The notes: generated from the letters alone by a model not told the origin. A stretch of 64,000 nt of DNA from an uncultured bacterium (GCA_964388155.1 CAYLYH010000007.1:5679-69678); one strand, 5' to 3'; shown: positions 45,372-57,023, counted from the stretch's first letter. Translations and numbers: made by a program.

Positions 45372-46502
45372 GTGGATACATTTAAATCAGGCACATTTCA
45401 AAGGCAGGGTGGCTACAAATCTTTTTCCCCGGAAAAGATCAATAAGCAATGGATTATATCTAATCCTGAAATACAAGATCTATTGGGACAAGCAAACAGG
45501 GAATTAGGGCGGTTGGATATGTTCAGTGAATATGTCCCTGACATTGATTTGTTTATCTATTTACACACCGTAAAAGAGGCCACGCAATCATCAAAGATTG
45601 AAGGGACACAAACGCGTGCCGAAGACTTGTTTGTAGATGATGTCAATCAAACTCCTGAAAAGCGTTTGGATAAAATCGAAGTTTTAAATTATATAACAGC
45701 ATTAAATGATGGAATTGAAAAACTTTCGCAACTTCCACTATCAACGCGTTTAATTAAAAAATTGCATTTTACACTCATGCAGGGGGTTAGGGGAAAGGAT
45801 AAAACACCGGGCGAGTATCGAAGGAGTCAAAATTGGATAGGAGGTGCCACCTTAAAAGATGCCGGTTTTATACCGCCACACCATTTGGACGTGAATCCGC
45901 TAATAGGAGATTTGGAAAAGTTTATCCATAACATTGAAATCCATGTACCCCATTTAATTAAAATAGCTATTGTCCACTACCAATTCGAAACTATCCATCC
46001 ATTTTTGGATGGCAACGGGAGGGTGGGGCGATTAATGATACCATTATATCTTGCAGAAAATAAATTACTCAAAAAGCCCGTTTTATATTTATCAGATTAT
46101 TTAGAAAAACATCGTCAACTTTATTATGACCATTTAATGAACACACGTCTAAAATCGGACTTAACCCCGTGGTTGAAGTTTTTTTTAGTTGGTATCATTG
46201 AAACGGCTAAAAATAGTATTAAAACTTTCGATGCCATATTAAAACTGCAAAACACATTAGATAAAAAGATCGCTGCTTTTGGCAGAAGAAGTATTCATGT
46301 TAAAAAATTAATTGAACGCTTGTATGAAAACCCGGTTATAAACAGCACCGCCACCGTTAAATTATTACAAGTATCAAATCCCACAGGCATAAAACTATTG
46401 GCGGATTTAGAAAAAGCAGGAATTCTTGTGGAAATCACCGGGCAAGCACGAAATCGCTCCTATTTGTTTGAAGAATATATGAGATGTTTTTTCAATGAAT
46501 AA
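45372..46502 (+). CDS. Fic family protein (class II, N-terminal inhibitory helix, C-terminal wHTH-like domain)
   Basis: The Fic motif HPFLDGNGRVGRL and the inhibitory motif SSKIEG ([ST]xxxE[GN]) upstream of the core are both present. The start codon is GTG. Confidence 0.92.
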   Translation: MDTFKSGTFQRQGGYKSFSPEKINKQWIISNPEIQDLLGQANRELGRLDMFSEYVPDIDLFIYLHTVKEATQSSKIEGTQTRAEDLFVDDVNQTPEKRLDKIEVLNYITALNDGIEKLSQLPLSTRLIKKLHFTLMQGVRGKDKTPGEYRRSQNWIGGATLKDAGFIPPHHLDVNPLIGDLEKFIHNIEIHVPHLIKIAIVHYQFETIHPFLDGNGRVGRLMIPLYLAENKLLKKPVLYLSDYLEKHRQLYYDHLMNTRLKSDLTPWLKFFLVGIIETAKNSIKTFDAILKLQNTLDKKIAAFGRRSIHVKKLIERLYENPVINSTATVKLLQVSNPTGIKLLADLEKAGILVEITGQARNRSYLFEEYMRCFFNE

Positions 46503-46699
46503 GCCAACGCACCCTTTCCCCAACCACTGGCAGGAAACCCTACTCCCTTCTCCAATCCGGGGGGTTCAATGAGACCTAACTGGAAAAAACCGCTTTATGC
46601 TATAAATTCATAAACAACATAAAATAAATTGTCATAAATTCCGACAGTTTAAGACCGTGATTTAAACCGACTTGCAGCGGTCAAAAAGAACAAGCTAAG

Positions 46700-46733
46700 C
46701 CGGGGACAGAAGAGTCCTGCCGGGCTCTTTTTT
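46700..46733 (+). terminator. intrinsic terminator candidate downstream of fic
   Basis: CCGGGGAC-agaaga-GTCC-tg-CCGG is followed by GCTC and TTTTTT. Confidence 0.5.
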
Positions 46734-46858
46734 GATTCCGGGCTATTTGAAAAAAACAGCATCAAGAACACCCATAAATATGGGTTGCCAACCGAGTCCT
46801 TTGAGGATCACGGTGGTTATTCCGATAAACGGAAGATGTGCGGTCAGCCGAAAAATAC

Positions 46859-46883
46859 AAACCTGCTTTTCGGCGGGTTTTTT
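46859..46883 (+). terminator. intrinsic terminator candidate (orphan)
   Basis: AAACCTGC-ttttcg-GCGGGTTT is followed by a T-run. No ORF I would call lies between this terminator and the previous one. Confidence 0.5.
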
Positions 46884-46935
46884 ATTTTTATGACCTCTTG
46901 ATGTGATCGAAACCCAACATGAAAGGAAACAGATC

Positions 46936-47241
46936 ATGAATAAAGAGACAAAAACAGCAGCCCTTCACCTAAAATATCCGCTGCTCATACACTGCAATGA
47001 ATGCGGGGAATATAAAGGCGTCATTCATTCCCGGGAGATCGAACCGGAAAAACACCGGCGCTTCTCTGATAAGAACAACCCGATCATTATCACATGCCTC
47101 TGTGAAGGCCTTAGCTGTGAGCACTGCAGAAAACTCAGCCACAAACCCATCAGCAACTACTATGATGAAGCAAAAGACAGAACGATTCATGTGCCGTATT
47201 TTGCCGGAATGGCGTGCAGACAGTGCGGTAAAAACCAGTAA
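46936..47241 (+). CDS. Cys-rich small protein (putative zinc-binding), unknown family
   Basis: Starting at the ATG at 46936, it contains CNECGEYKG, CLCEGLSCEHCRK and CRQCGK (ten Cys in about 100 aa). Confidence 0.5.
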   Translation: MNKETKTAALHLKYPLLIHCNECGEYKGVIHSREIEPEKHRRFSDKNNPIIITCLCEGLSCEHCRKLSHKPISNYYDEAKDRTIHVPYFAGMACRQCGKNQ

Positions 47242-47335
47242 ACAAGCGACACAGAACATAAAATAAGGAGATAGCGGGGGTGTTATTGTTGGCTGTTAGT
47301 GCCCTCCCCGCTGTTTAGAATGTATTATTCAGATT

Positions 47336-49300
47336 TTATTTTAGAGGTGTAATTCCGCAATCAAGTAAATACTTATATACTCCATCGTAATATTCTGAAA
47401 ATCTTGTTAGATCATTATTGTCTCCCAAAGGTACCCAAATTACCATTCCTTCTCTTGCCCTTGTCAAAATTACTCTGTATTTATTTTTAATAAATTGTTT
47501 TTTTGATTCTTTGTGTATTTTTTGCCATTTTGTTCCTACAAACCGATGGTAGAACCAATTTCCATTAATATTTCTAAAATCAGCTCCCCAGCAAACAAGT
47601 GACCAATCTATTTCTAATCCCTGAATTCCAAATTCAGTAATAGGAAGCTCCAAGAATGAAGATGACCTTATATCATTATTTGAATTTAGAAACCACGCTG
47701 AAACATCAATTTTCAATGTTACATCTAACCCTTCTGGCCTTAGTCTTCTTGCTCCTGAGCTAGCAACAAGACCACATCTTCTCAAACCGCGAGTTTGCGA
47801 TGTGATATGTTCTTTTGATTTTTTTAGTGAACGCGAAACATAAATTGGAAAGTCCTGTAAGTAATTATTATAAAGGTCTTTAGCTATATGTATGTCATTC
47901 TCTAAAATTGTATCAACCCAGTTTGAAACTTTTTCAGCTCTATACGATCGAATATCAATATCTAAATGTAGCTCTGGTATATTGTTGATTTCTATAGATT
48001 TTGGTGCTTCCTTTGTGAATAATTTATATTTACCAACATCAATCATGTTGGGTGATATAAAAATATTCCAGTGTGAAAAGTTTTCAGTTAAAGCCCTACC
48101 CCACTCGGACAACCCGGCTTCACCATCGTTAATTTCTTGCCCATTTCCAATTAACCCAACAAGGACTGCCCAATCATGTCTGTCTAATATTTTTAGTATT
48201 AATTCTGGTTCGGAGACATCTCTTTGGAATTTTCTGTATGACTGTTTTCTATCCCAAGCTCTTTGCGCTTCATCAAAAATGATGATTTTATCTGGCGGGC
48301 AATCTTCATTGCCATAATAAACATCAATGAACAAATGAATATTTTGAATAAATGTTTTTACTTTCCTTCTGGATTCTGCGAGTGTTGTGTCGTTATTTTC
48401 TTTGTAATCTCTAGCTAATGCTTCTTGTAATACGGTTACTAAAGGACCGTTTCCTGACAAAAATACTCCCAACTCGTTTTGATGAATCCCCTTGTTATGT
48501 ACAATGTTTAGACCACACAGTGTTTTACCTGAACCAGGAATGCCTGTAATAAAACAAACTATTTTCTTTTTGTGTTTTTGTGCTTCCTCTACCGCTTTCA
48601 ATACTGCGTCTGTTGTTTTGGTTAAGTTTTTAATTCCGGCATGAGAGCGGGATATTTCTTTTACGTTTTGTCCGGCATAAAGCACTTGGGCGGCTTCAAT
48701 TATTGTCGGAGTTGGGTTATAAAGTGAATCGTTCCATTCAATATAATTAATCTGTTCGCTTGTTTTGTAGATTGTTATTGAGTTTATAATGATTGAAATG
48801 ACATTATTGGGATTTGCTATCTGAACCTTGTTAACATGGCCCTGATAATTCCAATCGTTGTTTGGTGAAATATTCTCATTATCAAGCGTGAAAATGATTG
48901 GTACAATAAATTTATTTATTGATCCTAGGTGAAAATCTCTGATGTCTAAAGCATAATCTTCTACTTGATCAATATCTTGTTTCGTAGGCCTATAATAACG
49001 TTGTTTGTACTCTATAAGAAAAATGACTCCGCCATAAATCAACACTACATCAACTCTTTTGCCCCGACGAGGAATCGTAAATTCTAAAATTACACCAGCT
49101 TTAAGAAATTTGATTTCATGTTTAGAATATTCAGAAAACACATTTTTTAATACGATGATTTCTTCCTGCCAAACCCTTGTTTGTAGTTGAAGTTGTTGAT
49201 AAAACCCTGCTTTTTGCGCTCCAATTGTTAACAAACCCACAATTTTTTCTGTTGAATCGTTTATAAAATTTTCAACAGAATTTTTATAAAAGCTAGGCAT
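47336..49300 (-). CDS. PD-(D/E)xK nuclease-like N-terminal domain fused to DUF2075/SF1-helicase-like P-loop ATPase
   Basis: The N-terminus GKRVDVVLIYGGVIFLIEYK gives D84...E97-x-K99. Walker A is ITGIPGSGKT (aa 251-260), Walker B is IIIFDEAQRAW (about aa 340-349), and the C-terminal VILTRAREGMVIWVP resembles helicase motif VI. Confidence 0.8.
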   Translation of the reverse strand: MPSFYKNSVENFINDSTEKIVGLLTIGAQKAGFYQQLQLQTRVWQEEIIVLKNVFSEYSKHEIKFLKAGVILEFTIPRRGKRVDVVLIYGGVIFLIEYKQRYYRPTKQDIDQVEDYALDIRDFHLGSINKFIVPIIFTLDNENISPNNDWNYQGHVNKVQIANPNNVISIIINSITIYKTSEQINYIEWNDSLYNPTPTIIEAAQVLYAGQNVKEISRSHAGIKNLTKTTDAVLKAVEEAQKHKKKIVCFITGIPGSGKTLCGLNIVHNKGIHQNELGVFLSGNGPLVTVLQEALARDYKENNDTTLAESRRKVKTFIQNIHLFIDVYYGNEDCPPDKIIIFDEAQRAWDRKQSYRKFQRDVSEPELILKILDRHDWAVLVGLIGNGQEINDGEAGLSEWGRALTENFSHWNIFISPNMIDVGKYKLFTKEAPKSIEINNIPELHLDIDIRSYRAEKVSNWVDTILENDIHIAKDLYNNYLQDFPIYVSRSLKKSKEHITSQTRGLRRCGLVASSGARRLRPEGLDVTLKIDVSAWFLNSNNDIRSSSFLELPITEFGIQGLEIDWSLVCWGADFRNINGNWFYHRFVGTKWQKIHKESKKQFIKNKYRVILTRAREGMVIWVPLGDNNDLTRFSEYYDGVYKYLLDCGITPLK

Positions 49301-49317
49301 CCACTTACCTTACAGCT

Positions 49318-49512
49318 TTATAATAAGAAGAAATCAGAAAGAGGAATCTCTAGTGCCTTAACTATTTTTTCAAGAGTGTCAATAGTAGGTGATTTTTCAT
49401 CTCTTTCTAGTGCACCAATATATGTTCTATGAAGATTACATCTCTCAGCAAGTTGTTCTTGAGATAATTTTTTGTTTTTCCTTAATGTCCGGATGTTCTT
49501 GCCAATCTTCAT
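49318..49512 (-). CDS. XRE-family helix-turn-helix transcriptional regulator (64 aa)
   Basis: IRTLRKNKKLSQEQLAERCNLHRTYIGALERDEKSPTIDTLEKIVKAL is a canonical HTH_XRE. It lies 17 nt upstream of the DUF2075 gene on the same strand. Confidence 0.9.
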   Translation of the reverse strand: MKIGKNIRTLRKNKKLSQEQLAERCNLHRTYIGALERDEKSPTIDTLEKIVKALEIPLSDFFLL

Positions 49513-50940: not shown

Positions 50941-51408
50941 ATGACCAAAACAGTTACCGGCGTCATCGATAGTTACGTCTTTAGACGAACAGTTGACGGA
51001 CTTCGCTTTTTAATGCTGAAGCGAGCAAAAACAAAGATGTATGAACACCTTTGGCAGGGCGTTGCCGGTAAGATTGAACCGGGTGAAACTGCTTGGCAAA
51101 CTGCTGTCAGAGAATTAAAAGAAGAAACAGGACTCACGTCCAAACGGATGTTCACTGCCGATTATGTCAGCCGGTTTTATGAAGCGCACAAAGATCGGAT
51201 CAACCTTGTACCGGTTTTCGGGATTGAAGTCGATGATGAAAATATTACATTATCAGAAGAACATTGTGAATTTCGCTGGATTACCGCCGCAGAAGCAGAA
51301 TCTTTACTCGTATGGAGAGGACAAAAAGAGGGCTTACGGACAGTTAATGAAATGGTATTAAAAAACGATGACCGAATGCGGTGGTCAGAAATAAAAACGG
51401 AGGAATAA
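50941..51408 (+). CDS. NUDIX hydrolase
   Basis: The Nudix box GKIEPGETAWQTAVRELKEETGL is present. Confidence 0.88.
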   Translation: MTKTVTGVIDSYVFRRTVDGLRFLMLKRAKTKMYEHLWQGVAGKIEPGETAWQTAVRELKEETGLTSKRMFTADYVSRFYEAHKDRINLVPVFGIEVDDENITLSEEHCEFRWITAAEAESLLVWRGQKEGLRTVNEMVLKNDDRMRWSEIKTEE

Positions 51409-51411
51409 ATT

Positions 51412-51867
51412 ATGTTAGAAATCGGCACACAGGCACCGGCGTTCAGTCTGCCGGATGCAAACGAAAATACGGTATCACTACAAGATTATAAGGGACAAAA
51501 ATTCGTTCTGTGGTTTTTCCCAAAAGCCAGCACCCCCGGATGAACATCCGAAGGAAAGGGATTCCGGGATGAATACCAATCATTTGAGAAAAAGAATATC
51601 GCGATTATCGGGATGAGCGCTGACACGCCAAAACGTCAAAAGAAATTTGCGGAAAAACACGGGTTCCCGTTTCCGCTTCTTTGTGATGAATCCAAAGAAG
51701 TGCTAAAAGCCTACCACGCTTGGGGACCAAAAAAATTCTACGGACGGGAATACGAAGGTATTTATCGAATTACGTATATCATCGATGAAAAGGGTGTGAT
51801 TGAAAAAGCCTATCCGAAAGTGAAAACAAAAACCCACGCCACGGACATTCTCAGCGACTTGGGTTAG
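51412..51867 (+). CDS. bcp: thioredoxin-dependent peroxiredoxin Bcp/PrxQ with in-frame UGA (putative selenocysteine U44) at the peroxidatic position
   Basis: The ATG at 51412 opens MLEIGTQAPAFSLPDANENTVSLQDYKGQKFVLWFFPKASTPG-TGA-TSEGKGFRDEY.... This continues in frame into the track ORF 51613-51867. It aligns by eye to E. coli Bcp (...YFYPKAMTPGCTVQACGLRD...), with the TGA at 51541-51543 exactly on the catalytic Cys. Confidence 0.8.
51545..51571 (+). promoter_or_regulatory. candidate bacterial SECIS hairpin
   Basis: Starting 2 nt after the UGA, CATCC-gaa-GGAA-aggga-TTCC-g-GGATG forms 5-bp and 4-bp stems with a G-rich apical loop. Confidence 0.45.
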
Positions 51868-51919
51868 TCAGTTGGCACCGGCTTTATTACTACAAAACTC
51901 CATTTATCCAATACTCCAA

Positions 51920-52855
51920 TCAAACCATCACCCCTTTTTCTGTGAACGCCGATTCATTCTGTGTTTCATCCAGATATCCCATCATAACAGAATGCCCGGT
52001 AACAGTAAAGGCTTTATCCGTGTTTTCGATTTTCGTCATGTGATTTGGTTCTTCACCAATCGTTAAAACTGCCGTGTTCTCCGGCCGAATGAAAACCGGA
52101 GCGGGATATCCGTCTTTTATTTCACTCCAATCAAAATATAATTCGTAATCAGGATTTGGAAATTGATCCGGTAAGCCGATTTTCATATCAGGATTCTCCG
52201 TCGTCAGAACAGCGCCGGTGTAGAACGGCAGAACAACCTGAAACACCGCCCACGCAGTAGACATCGGCGGCAGATCAATGTGAAACGATTTTGTTTCATT
52301 CAGCCCGGAAGATAAATAAAATCCGTTCGCATTCACCAATAAATTATAATGGCTGAGTTTTATTCCACGTTTCTTGCTCCAAAAGACCATCGCTTCATCC
52401 GGTAGCAAACGGTTAATTTTGTGAACGTATTCCGTTGGGTACTCCAGTAGGCATTCGGGATAATCCCACTCATTGCCATCCAAAATGAAATCTGGTTTAA
52501 CACCGCCAATCGCAGAGGTGATTTTTTCGTCTGTGATGACTAAAGAGGCTCCGACAGACCAAATCCCAAATGACATCAACTCAGCATACGGGAAGTCAAA
52601 TCCATAAATGAGCACCCGATGTTCATGCGTTAGTCCAAGTGATTCCAGCCAGTTCGCGGTTTGATTGACCAAATCTAAGATATGCTTGTTGGTCAAGTCG
52701 ACATCTTTGTACGCAAAATGATTAGCATATTTGACATTCTGCCCGGTAATCAGCCCCCGCAAATTAGGATACGGAACCATATACTCAATCGGCTCAACAT
52801 TCCCATAGCATTGAGCATTGTAGATTAATTTTGAAGTACTTGTGTCGGTTTTCAC
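51920..52855 (-). CDS. ANL (acyl/aryl-CoA synthetase)-superfamily-like protein, truncated and with degenerate P-loop
   Basis: AMVFWSKKRGIKLSHYNLL occupies the position of the ..YTSGTTGxPKGVxxSHxNL motif. FTVTGHSVMMGYLDETQNESAFTEKG corresponds to the GE..vrG..vm.GY....T...f motif. The ORF stops just before the expected GW.hTGD motif, and the C-terminal subdomain is absent. Confidence 0.5.
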   Translation of the reverse strand: MKTDTSTSKLIYNAQCYGNVEPIEYMVPYPNLRGLITGQNVKYANHFAYKDVDLTNKHILDLVNQTANWLESLGLTHEHRVLIYGFDFPYAELMSFGIWSVGASLVITDEKITSAIGGVKPDFILDGNEWDYPECLLEYPTEYVHKINRLLPDEAMVFWSKKRGIKLSHYNLLVNANGFYLSSGLNETKSFHIDLPPMSTAWAVFQVVLPFYTGAVLTTENPDMKIGLPDQFPNPDYELYFDWSEIKDGYPAPVFIRPENTAVLTIGEEPNHMTKIENTDKAFTVTGHSVMMGYLDETQNESAFTEKGVMV

Positions 52856-52876: not shown

Positions 52877-54289
<1,413 letters not shown>

Positions 54290-54398
54290 CTATAAAACAT
54301 CGGCGGACAGGCAGATTTCTCAGATTGCACAGATTGCACAGATATATTTATTGTGATTTCAATTAAGTCCGTGATGTTTGTAATGTTTTCTACAATAA

Positions 54399-55817
54399 TC
54401 AATAATCAATGTTAAAGATTACTACTTTCGGTTCGGTCATTTCTTGCAGGGCAAATTTAATTCCTTCACGCCCAATTCCGCTGTTTTTTACACCGCCAAA
54501 CGGCATTTGGTCCAACCGGTAATCGGTTGAATCGTTTATAATCACACTTCCAACTTCCAACTCATCAATGGCTTTATGTGCCTGGTTTATATCCTTGGTA
54601 AAGATGGCACCGTGCAAGCCGTAGTTCACACTGTTTGCTATTTCAATCGCTTCGTCAAGCGTAGTTATCTTTTTCAATAAAACCACCGGTCCAAATACTT
54701 CTTCGTATGTCAAAATTGCATCGTCAGATACATTCGTCAGCACTGTCGGCTCCAGCCGCGAACCATCTCTGTTTCCGCCGCATTCAAGCGTTGCCCCTAT
54801 ATCTGTGGCGTCTTTTACCCATTTTTCAACACGTTTTGCCTCATCAATGGTAATCATAGGTCCGATATCTGTGGACTCATCAAGCTGCCGGCCAACTTTG
54901 AGGATCTTGGTTTTTTCAACGAATATTTTAGTGAATGTATCGAATACATCACTTTGAATCAAAATCCGTTGCACGCCGATGCAATTTTGTCCGACTGCCC
55001 AAAATGCACCGGACACACAGGATTCAACCGCCCAATTAATATTGGCATCGTCCATCACGATGACCGGCGAATTGCTGCCAAGTTCCATTCCGATTTTTTT
55101 TAGGCCGACTTTGCTCATTACGTTTTCGCCTGCATCGACACCGCCGGTAAAACTCACCATTCTGACACGGGGATCAGTCACAAGAGCATCAGCGTTTTCG
55201 GAGGCATAACCTGTAACCACATTCAAGACATGCGCCGGAAGTCCAGCTTCCATAAAAGCTTCGGCAAGTTTCAGTGCCGAAAGCGGTGTAACAGTTGCCG
55301 GTTTAAGCACAATGCTGTTTCCGCCCGCAATGGCAGGGCCTAATTTATGTGCAACTAAATTCAGCGGATCGTTAAATGGTGTGATTGCACCGATAATCCC
55401 AATTGGAACACGCTTGTAATAGCCGGTTTTGTTTTCTGCCCCTGCGACGGAATCAAACGGGAGTGTTTCCCCTAAAATCCGACGTGATTCTTCCGCAGAC
55501 ACCATTAACGTATTCACGCATCGTGATGCTTCACCGCGTGCCTCTTTGATGGTTTTTGAACCTTCACTCGCAATTGTACGTGCAAATTCCTCTTGATTAT
55601 TTTTGACAATCTCAGCAGTTTTATATAAAATATCCATCCGTTGGTGAACAGGCATCTTCCGGGCAATTTTAGCACCAATTTCGGCACTGTCGATTGCTTT
55701 TTTCATATCGTCCACTGTTCCGCGCGGAACAGTATCTACGACCGTTTGGTCATAAGGGTTTTCTATGTTTATCGTTTCATTTTTGGTGATCCATTCACCG
55801 GCAAGTAACATCTTCAT
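54399..55817 (-). CDS. NAD(P)-dependent aldehyde dehydrogenase
   Basis: 472 aa containing GAITPFNDPLNL, MELGSNSP, the catalytic GQNCIGVQR and EEVFGPV. Confidence 0.92.
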   Translation of the reverse strand: MKMLLAGEWITKNETINIENPYDQTVVDTVPRGTVDDMKKAIDSAEIGAKIARKMPVHQRMDILYKTAEIVKNNQEEFARTIASEGSKTIKEARGEASRCVNTLMVSAEESRRILGETLPFDSVAGAENKTGYYKRVPIGIIGAITPFNDPLNLVAHKLGPAIAGGNSIVLKPATVTPLSALKLAEAFMEAGLPAHVLNVVTGYASENADALVTDPRVRMVSFTGGVDAGENVMSKVGLKKIGMELGSNSPVIVMDDANINWAVESCVSGAFWAVGQNCIGVQRILIQSDVFDTFTKIFVEKTKILKVGRQLDESTDIGPMITIDEAKRVEKWVKDATDIGATLECGGNRDGSRLEPTVLTNVSDDAILTYEEVFGPVVLLKKITTLDEAIEIANSVNYGLHGAIFTKDINQAHKAIDELEVGSVIINDSTDYRLDQMPFGGVKNSGIGREGIKFALQEMTEPKVVIFNIDY

Positions 55818-55826
55818 TATTTCCTC

Positions 55827-57023
55827 CTAACTAACCACAGATTTCACGCTTTTCAATGCTTTTTCAAGGTCTTCGATCAAATCTTCAACATCTTCGCATC
55901 CGACGGAGAGACGAACCAGTCCATTGGTAATACCGGACTTTATTCGGCACTCTTTACTCATTCCAGCATGTGTCATGGAAGCAGGGTGTTGGATAAGGGT
56001 TTCATATCCGCCCAGAGATACCGCCAATGTCGCGACAGTTACATTGTCCATGAGTTTTTTACCGGCACCCAGTCCGCCTTTGACTTCAAAACTCATCATC
56101 GAACCGGAACCGCTCATCTGTTGTTTTGCCAAATCGTGTTGGGGGTGGGATGTTAATCCCGGGTACCGCACCCATTCAATGTTTGGATGGTTCTCTAAAA
56201 ATTTGGCAATTTGAATAGCATTTTGCTGTGCTTTTTCAACACGCAAAGAAATCGTACGCAATCCGCGGAGAACCAGCCATGCCTGATGCGGATCCATGGT
56301 TCCGCCCATTGAAAGCAATACTTTCTTCGTTTTTTGCAGTAAAGTGTTTTCCTTAAAAACTAAAATTCCTCCGACGACATCCGTATGTCCGTTGATGAAT
56401 TTTGTCATACTGTGCATCACAATATCTGCTCCTAATGCCAGCGGATTTTGCAGCATTGGGCTCATAAATGTATTATCCACAGCTAGGGAAATATTGTGTT
56501 CATGTGCAAGGTCGGCACAGGCCTGGATATCGGTAATATTGATGGTCGGGTTCGCCGGGGTTTCGATAAAAATTAACGCAGTCTCAGGGCAGATTGCTCT
56601 CCGGATATTTTCAATCTTGGTTGTATCCACGAAATCATATTTCACGCCAAATCGTGAAAATTCTTTTTCAACAACACCACGTGTCGGACCGTACATCGCA
56701 TCCGTGCCGATAATATGTTTTCCCGAGCCGAGTAGCGCCATAAATAACGTGGAACTTGCCGCCATCCCGGAGGCGGTTGCTAACGCGCCAATTCCGCCTT
56801 CCAATGATGCAACTGCATCTTGCAATGCATCTGTGGTCGGATTTCCGATTCGCGTGTAAATGTAGCCGTCTTCTTTGCCGGAAAACCGTGCACCGCCCTG
56901 ATCCGCGGATTCAAACGCAAATGTGGATGTTTGATAAATAGGCGGGGACACACTGCCAAGGGGGTCTTTTATATGTCCCGCATGGGTGACAACTGTATCA
57001 CGTTTTATATTTTTTAAACTCAT
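55827..57023 (-). CDS. Cys/Met-metabolism PLP enzyme (methionine gamma-lyase / cystathionine gamma-synthase family)
   Basis: Contains YTRIGNPTTDALQDAVASLEGG, DNTFMSP and the PLP-Lys region HSMTKFINGHTDVVGG. Confidence 0.9.
   Translation of the reverse strand: MSLKNIKRDTVVTHAGHIKDPLGSVSPPIYQTSTFAFESADQGGARFSGKEDGYIYTRIGNPTTDALQDAVASLEGGIGALATASGMAASSTLFMALLGSGKHIIGTDAMYGPTRGVVEKEFSRFGVKYDFVDTTKIENIRRAICPETALIFIETPANPTINITDIQACADLAHEHNISLAVDNTFMSPMLQNPLALGADIVMHSMTKFINGHTDVVGGILVFKENTLLQKTKKVLLSMGGTMDPHQAWLVLRGLRTISLRVEKAQQNAIQIAKFLENHPNIEWVRYPGLTSHPQHDLAKQQMSGSGSMMSFEVKGGLGAGKKLMDNVTVATLAVSLGGYETLIQHPASMTHAGMSKECRIKSGITNGLVRLSVGCEDVEDLIEDLEKALKSVKSVVS

Follow-up and report, generated by a model that had tools for sequence, protein, structure and literature searches.

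Why does a peroxiredoxin gene carry an in-frame TGA at exactly the codon that should specify its catalytic cysteine? The question is raised by a locus within a stretch of 64,000 nucleotides of DNA from an uncultured bacterium (hereafter the window, meaning the whole stretch that was analysed), in which gene callers cut the gene of interest, prx, into fragments of 43 and 84 amino acids. A preliminary description of this DNA had judged the track of open reading frames (ORFs) to be incomplete at this point, and had placed the start of the gene at the ATG that lies 3 nt past the stop codon of a NUDIX hydrolase gene. Indeed, a mechanical ORF list gives a 43-codon and an 84-codon piece, and the start codon is confirmed from the sequence (Table 1). 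When nucleotides 51412-51870 are translated in frame, the product reads MLEIGTQAPAFSLPDANENTVSLQDYKGQKFVLWFFPKASTPG up to the TGA at codon 44 and TSEGKGFRDEY...DILSDLG from there to the terminal stop, and this TGA is the sole internal stop. Written in protein form, the same frame comprises 151 codons, with MLEIGTQAPAFSLPD...FFPKASTPG preceding the TGA and TSEGKGFRDEY...DILSDLG following it. Judged from the comparative evidence presented below, this is very probably a functional selenocysteine (Sec) PrxQ/Bcp gene of Marinimicrobia, whose TGA codon is recoded by way of a SECIS hairpin.

Table 1. Features of the prx locus, in window coordinates.
Feature	Position	Strand	Remarks
NUDIX hydrolase gene	50941..51408	+	directly 5' of prx; stop TAA 51406-51408
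Shine-Dalgarno-like GGAGG	51399..51403	+	8 nt upstream of the prx ATG; read from sequence
Sec-PrxQ/Bcp gene (predicted)	51412..51867	+	151 codons and TAG stop, TGA read through
UGA, Sec codon 44 (predicted)	51541..51543	+	peroxidatic (CP) column of PxxxTxxU
Lys49 codon	51556..51558	+	usual +5 resolving-Cys position (E. coli-type Bcp)
H2 optional outer pair	51558/51577	+	
Probable SECIS hairpin H2	51559..51576	+	stem 51559-51564 with 51571-51576; RNAalifold consensus
H2 loop CGGGAU	51565-51570	+	Arg52 and Asp53 codons; 21 nt past UGA
Ala80 codon	51649..51651	+	+36, the helix-alpha3 resolving-Cys position of X. campestris PrxQ
Cys91 codon	51682..51684	+	+47; sole Cys of the window protein

The gene upstream of prx yields Nudix matches in NCBIfam, every one of them under its equivalog cut-off, and other assemblies contain a gene of identical sequence for which the Pfam NUDIX domain is recorded. 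Its pairing with prx recurs in several of the related loci (L001, L026 and L112-L116), and a strict NUDIX-box motif is present within 520 nt upstream of prx in 47 of 85 loci. With a gap of 3 nt between them, the two genes are probably co-transcribed and would form a small oxidative-damage operon.

The prx product is predicted to be a peroxide reductase with a thioredoxin fold and to belong to the Bcp/PrxQ subfamily. Specifically, when a cysteine is placed at codon 44, the protein matches the Pfam AhpC-TSA model (PF00578) with E=8e-40 and 136 bits against a threshold of 26, and it passes the cut-off of the NCBIfam equivalog for Bcp-type thioredoxin-dependent thiol peroxidases (NF006960; 166 bits, cut-off 140). 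Its best structural relatives are PrxQ/BCP of X. campestris (3GKK, 5IIZ) and BCP of Burkholderia (5ENU), found with E-values of 4e-32 to 6e-25. The peroxidatic Cys (CP), the Thr and the Arg of these proteins align with the window protein over its full length, and in a HMMER alignment to the X. campestris and Burkholderia structures the TGA coincides with the peroxidatic Cys of PKDSTPGC. Whereas the solved proteins have Cys at the CP position, the window protein is predicted to have Sec in its place, within the active-site motif P37-K-A-S-T41-P-G-U44, the last position of which is located in this subfamily at the N-terminus of helix alpha2; R119 is invariant across the family alignment. Pfam, NCBIfam and the solved PrxQ structures all agree with the preliminary description, which had identified the protein as Bcp/PrxQ and had put the TGA exactly on the catalytic Cys.

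Two other kinds of selenoprotein were considered and ruled out. The window motif, T-P-G-U-T-S-E, is of the TxxU form and has no Cys at +3, which excludes a Prx-like UxxC thiol:disulfide oxidoreductase. Similarly, the model for PrxU-type Sec-peroxiredoxins (NF040737) gives the window protein 38 bits against a cut-off of 270. PrxU of Eubacterium acidaminophilum, which is also a peroxiredoxin with a catalytic Sec and has been characterised biochemically, provides an experimental precedent, but it belongs to a different Prx subfamily.

That selenoproteins exist in the peroxiredoxin family had been pointed out in the preliminary description, and they have been known from marine metagenome surveys since 2005. 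Sec-peroxiredoxins with a TxxU motif (COG1225) were represented by 43 genes from the Sargasso Sea (Zhang et al. 2005, PMC1088965) and by 253 in GOS (Zhang and Gladyshev 2008, PMC2398784), and they occur in 78 sequenced bacteria (Peng et al. 2016, PMC5029168). A 2026 review places Prx (PF00578, TxxU) among the established selenoproteins. The window gene almost certainly belongs to the class so catalogued (COG1225/PF00578), with which it shares the fold, the PxxxTxxU motif with Sec at the peroxidatic site, the marine habitat and a Cys/Sec pairing in which the Cys homologues are very abundant. It differs from the surveyed genes in that these were not assigned to Marinimicrobia, and in that the surveys do not describe the hairpin H2 or the loss or relocation of the resolving Cys that are reported here.

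A scan that used one genome per species produced 25 related loci, and a metagenome scan contributed 80 further marine loci. The best relative in the former, the Candidatus Neomarinimicrobiota MAG NIOZ-UU68, is 91% identical and fully syntenic, and for this reason we assign the window, by sequence relationship, to a deep-ocean bacterium of the Marinimicrobia (SAR406, Candidatus Neomarinimicrobiota). Besides the window, TGA is found at this column in 11 species-level genomes of Marinimicrobia (65-91% identity), and one further Marinimicrobia locus (L007, 68% identity) has TGT. Homologues from Cryomorphaceae, Gemmatimonadota, Desulfobacca and Phycisphaeraceae have TGC or TGT, and TGA is encountered again in Desulfacinum and in a Verrucomicrobiaceae MAG. 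Overall, the motif was found and the Sec column could be read in 101 of 108 loci, with TGA in 90, TGC in 7 and TGT in 4. The orthologues therefore hold either TGA (90) or a Cys codon (11) at this column, which is the pattern that the preliminary description had expected of a Sec codon. Every one of the 86 TGA genes of checkable length contains exactly one in-frame stop across 148 codons. Pairwise dN/dS has a median of 0.17 in codons 2-43 and of 0.19 in codons 59-148, and both halves of the gene are therefore under strong purifying selection.

Immediately downstream of the TGA, the RNA itself is constrained. Among 12 Marinimicrobia genes, synonymous differences between pairs average 0.49 for the gene as a whole and 0.12-0.16 for codons 46-58. 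An alignment of 81 distinct TGA-form sequences reveals a conserved hairpin in this region, H2, whose six core pairs are formed in 78-81 of the sequences (96-100%). One of these pairs occurs as AU in 42 sequences, GC in 28 and GU in 11, and another as UA in 76, CG in 3 and UG in 2, with no unpaired case for either. Across the alignment, 92% of cells are paired, compared with at most 64% in controls for which the 3' partner was slid. The covariation score of H2 exceeds those of all 500 shuffles, and the incompatible A27/C40 combination is absent from the 81 sequences (Fisher p=4e-13), although both figures overstate independence because the sequences are phylogenetically related. Some compensatory changes are made at the cost of an amino acid replacement, Phe55 to Leu (UUC to CUC), which is accompanied by a synonymous change of GGA to GGG. 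Of the 81 sequences, 71 have CGUGAU or CGGGAU as their loop. Folding z-scores for single sequences are not significant (-0.6, 0.18 and -0.14), and we therefore relied on the comparative analysis; searches of Rfam at gathering and permissive thresholds gave no SECIS-like match. On this comparative evidence, H2 is the best-supported candidate and the likely SECIS.

How well does H2 conform to known bacterial elements? [quoted passage not shown] H2 fits this model in its loop (6 nt, CG(G/U)GAU), in its stem (6-7 bp) and in its spacing (21 nt). Like the consensus used by bSECISearch, which is of the E. coli fdhF type, it is a hairpin located 3' of the UGA within coding sequence, with a loop of 6 nt that has G and then G/U at positions 2-3. 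It differs from this type in that it is shorter, is weaker than the energy threshold in most members and shows no sequence similarity to fdhF. In energy H2 is borderline: the minimal 24-nt hairpin has a family median energy of -6.0 kcal/mol (range -3.1 to -10.3), and 14 of the 81 sequences reach -7.5 kcal/mol, a threshold that may refer to a longer element.

The hairpin of the window is weakened, though still inside this range. Its 24-nt form has an energy of -3.6 kcal/mol, compared with -7.4 kcal/mol for the 91%-identical relative (L001) and -8.7 kcal/mol for L096. It is weak because codon 55 (51574-51576) is UAC for Tyr rather than UUC, which turns the G.U pair 51560/51575 into a G.A mismatch; in 73 of the 81 relatives the middle base of this codon is U. 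Recoding efficiency may be lower in the window species as a consequence.

The preliminary description had drawn attention to another hairpin, at 51545-51571. This is indeed the local minimum-energy fold of the window sequence (-9.0 kcal/mol), in part owing to the weakening of H2 by Tyr55 in this sequence, but the conserved structure is H2. As a SECIS candidate the hairpin at 51545-51571 was rejected: it is 67% paired in the 81 homologues, 252 of 500 shuffles score as high, and its loop is located only 13 nt from the UGA, under the bSECIS minimum. A further alternative, H1 (51547-51552 with 51562-51567), is 77% paired and only weakly above shuffles, and was likewise set aside.

Cys forms provide a natural control for the same region. 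Two older ones (L115 and L116) encode a nearly identical peptide, GFRDDF, with the codons GGT TTC CGT GAT GAT TTT, and the hairpin is lost (-0.4 kcal/mol). In a third Cys form (L114:1084-1539, from ENA ERZ14208665 NODE_1560), TGT AGA AAT replaces TGA ACA ATT and the hairpin is intact (GGGUUC-CGUGAU-GAAUUC). A TGT codon with the hairpin retained suggests a very recent Sec-to-Cys switch, or else a variant or an error. In the Sec forms of Desulfacinum the hairpin is stronger (-17.8 kcal/mol), and its loop, CGUGC, follows the UGA at a distance of 17 nt.

If gene callers deliver just two fragments, of 43 and 84 amino acids, might prx simply be a pseudogene that has suffered a nonsense mutation at its catalytic codon? 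We regard this as highly improbable, given that TGA occupies this codon in 90 loci that represent many species, that 86 genes are free of other stops and frameshifts, that dN/dS is low on both sides of the TGA, and that synonymous-site constraint and a covarying hairpin are found exactly downstream of it. These same observations favor recoding over a chance nonsense mutation, as the preliminary description had proposed, and they speak against the possibility it had raised that the gene is decaying. It had also entertained a sequencing or assembly error, in which TGA would stand for a true TGC or TGT. The probability of such an error is negligible, because two independent assemblies of the same species from different projects (L112 from JGI 3300007508 and L113 from ENA ERZ23499077) match the window nucleotide for nucleotide throughout prx, TGA included. 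Moreover, the adjacent NUDIX protein is found in identical form on at least 24 contigs, and 11 independent MAG species as well as about 75 metagenome contigs share the TGA codon.

A different impression is gained from protein databases, where 108 of the best 120 relatives in the protein collection are full-length entries with Trp at the catalytic column (TPGWT), as though TGA had been reassigned genome-wide to Trp or Gly (code 4 or 25). These Trp-form entries comprise P0001, P0002, P0013 and about 105 others from ENA, JGI and NCBI sources (loci L026-L028). The three entries that were checked at the DNA level all have TGA, and none of the three DNA sequences translates to its entry under table 11; the Trp is therefore a product of metagenomic gene calling with genetic code 4. 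Within the window, 13 of 51 long ORFs terminate at TGA and no other gene requires TGA read-through, so TGA is an ordinary stop here, and an enzyme with Trp as its peroxidatic residue would be catalytically inactive. Reassignment is thus so improbable that it can be set beside sequencing error. Once the Trp entries are read as TGA, predicted Sec forms dominate the prx clade in public data, and code-4 Trp calls may hide many other selenoproteins as 'W' variants in public catalogues. A search for a second TGA-interrupted gene, in the window and, by way of conservation through the TGA, across all loci, gave no credible selenoprotein, its output being mostly off-frame shadows.

Sec and Cys forms also differ in their additional cysteines. 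A Cys at +5 (CxxxxC) is present in all 11 Cys forms versus 2 of 91 TGA forms, a contrast that could reflect the chemistry of the Se-S bond or constraints that the SECIS imposes on codons. A Cys at +36 is found in 58 of the 91 TGA-form loci and in 103 of the 108 database Sec forms (among the best 120 matches). Finally, 47 of the 91 TGA forms have a Cys at +47; because this residue is found in some Cys forms as well, it is not specific to Sec. In 12 of the 91 TGA forms, none of the three positions is occupied by Cys.

The window protein has lysine at the +5 position, flanked by Gly48 and Gly50; the preliminary description had mistakenly read a Gly there. At +36, as placed by HMMER alignment to 5IIZ and 3GKK (NFCAKQGF versus KFAEKHGF), it has Ala80 where X. 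campestris PrxQ has its resolving Cys, C84. A Cys at +5 or +36 defines the atypical 2-Cys subgroups and not the whole family, and because Lys49 and Ala80 occupy these positions, the window protein is grouped with BCPs of the 1-Cys type.

From the gene, its conserved TGA, the selection on either side of this codon and a hairpin that is conserved and covaries, all of which are observed directly, we infer SelB binding and Sec insertion itself. During translation, UGA44 would be recoded by SelB carrying Sec-tRNA(Sec), and SelB would be recruited by the coding-sequence hairpin 15 nt downstream of UGA44, with its stem of 6-7 bp and its loop of C-G-(G/U)-G-A-U. Genes for tRNA-Sec, SelA, SelB and SelD were not found when ARAGORN and tblastn with approximate E. 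coli SelA, SelB and SelD queries were applied to the 64-kb window, about 10 kb past its right edge and about 800 kb of related loci, and the only weak SelB-like match is an EF-G paralogue in L106. This absence says little, because the sequences, all of which surround prx, constitute a small and non-random part of the genome and because the E. coli queries are approximate. SelD has been reported in three SAR406 single-cell genomes (PMC5029168), which were classified as 'orphan SelD' since SelA, SelB and selenoprotein genes went undetected in them (Peng et al. 2016, PMC5029168). Incompleteness of the single-cell genomes, together with gene calls split at TGA, could explain this listing. In the searchable literature on Marinimicrobia, SAR406 or Marinisomatota, the orphan-SelD listing is the only entry that bears on the matter, and no report of Sec decoding was found.

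Alternatively, UGA44 might be recoded by means of the same hairpin with a residue other than Sec inserted, so that the product would be an ordinary Cys peroxiredoxin with an unusual encoding. On bioinformatic grounds, SECIS-dependent systems for Cys insertion have been suggested for a few bacteria, and the routes that can be envisaged include Cys delivery by a UGA-reading tRNA with a SelB-like factor, or near-cognate read-through. Such routes would accord with the absence of Sec machinery from the sequences searched and with the orphan-SelD status reported for SAR406 single-cell genomes. Yet SelD is present in SAR406 genomes, and the window gene matches the well-documented TxxU Sec-Prx class that is abundant in the same marine habitats. 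Furthermore, the sharp difference in +5 Cys between TGA and Cys forms would be unexpected if both carried Cys at the catalytic position. We consider non-Sec recoding, by these routes or in general, to be improbable.

If UGA44 specifies Sec, as we favor, then the selenolate of U44, in a PxxxTxxU pocket with the conserved Arg119, would attack the peroxide and be converted to a selenenic acid. This intermediate would be reduced directly by an external thiol reductase of the thioredoxin or glutaredoxin type, in a 1-Cys-like or '1-Sec' cycle. Direct external reduction is most likely the recycling route, because no Cys is present at either of the known resolving positions (+5 and +36), and participation of Cys91 in the cycle is less likely. 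BCPs that lack a resolving Cys and depend on direct reduction of the Trx/Grx type are known.

Annotation in split fragments thus conceals what is predicted to be an intact and strongly conserved antioxidant selenoenzyme in a very abundant dark-ocean lineage. Its recognition would place Sec use in a phylum for which the searchable literature holds only orphan SelD, and a minimal SECIS supported by covariation could improve selenoprotein finders. The new elements are modest, namely the phylum, the minimal SECIS, the coupling between Sec/Cys identity and the resolving Cys, and the code-4 'Trp' artefact. Sec biology is understood no differently as a result, since both the enzyme class and its abundance in the sea became known two decades ago. 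More tentatively, we can propose a broader scenario, possible but open to considerable doubt, in which Marinimicrobia have a working Sec-decoding trait with PrxQ as its flagship product and an unusually small, lineage-typical SECIS formed at Arg-Asp codons. In the same scenario, switching between Sec and Cys would be coupled to the resolving Cys, and the part of the clade that includes the window gene would run a '1-Sec' cycle.

Several other features of the window deserve mention. Two of its proteins recur with identical sequence in several metagenome projects, each on at least 24 contigs, and in the loci L109-L113 (JGI 3300009311, 3300007510 and 3300007508; ENA ERZ23499077), which were read individually, the gene order is as in the window. 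The identical proteins and the matching gene order indicate a widespread and highly clonal population. Adjoining prx is a gene for a 311-amino acid protein (51920-52855) that has a weak AMP-binding match only. Beyond it, and convergent with prx, lies a cluster for amino acid catabolism (52877-57023, minus strand) that includes a tyrosine phenol-lyase (TIGR02618, 763 bits, cut-off 720.7), an aldehyde dehydrogenase and a methionine gamma-lyase-like PLP enzyme.

On the other side of prx, a low-GC stretch at 45372-49512 (GC 0.386 over 44-48 kb) contains three genes and may be a defence or mobile islet. These genes encode a Fic-family adenylyltransferase-like protein (45372-46502, plus strand), a 654-amino acid protein with a Schlafen group-3-like helicase domain (47336-49300, minus strand), for whose identical gene PF09848 is recorded, and a small HTH/XRE regulator (49318-49512, minus strand). 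A SAM-I/IV riboswitch is located at 46754-46866 on the plus strand (Rfam RF01725, 46.3 bits, gathering score 41.1). Downstream of it is a Cys-rich ORF of about 100 amino acids (approximately 46936 to 47241, plus strand) with several CxxC motifs (…HCNECGEY…CLCEGLSCEHCRK…CRQCGKNQ), and such a cargo is unusual for a riboswitch of the SAM type.
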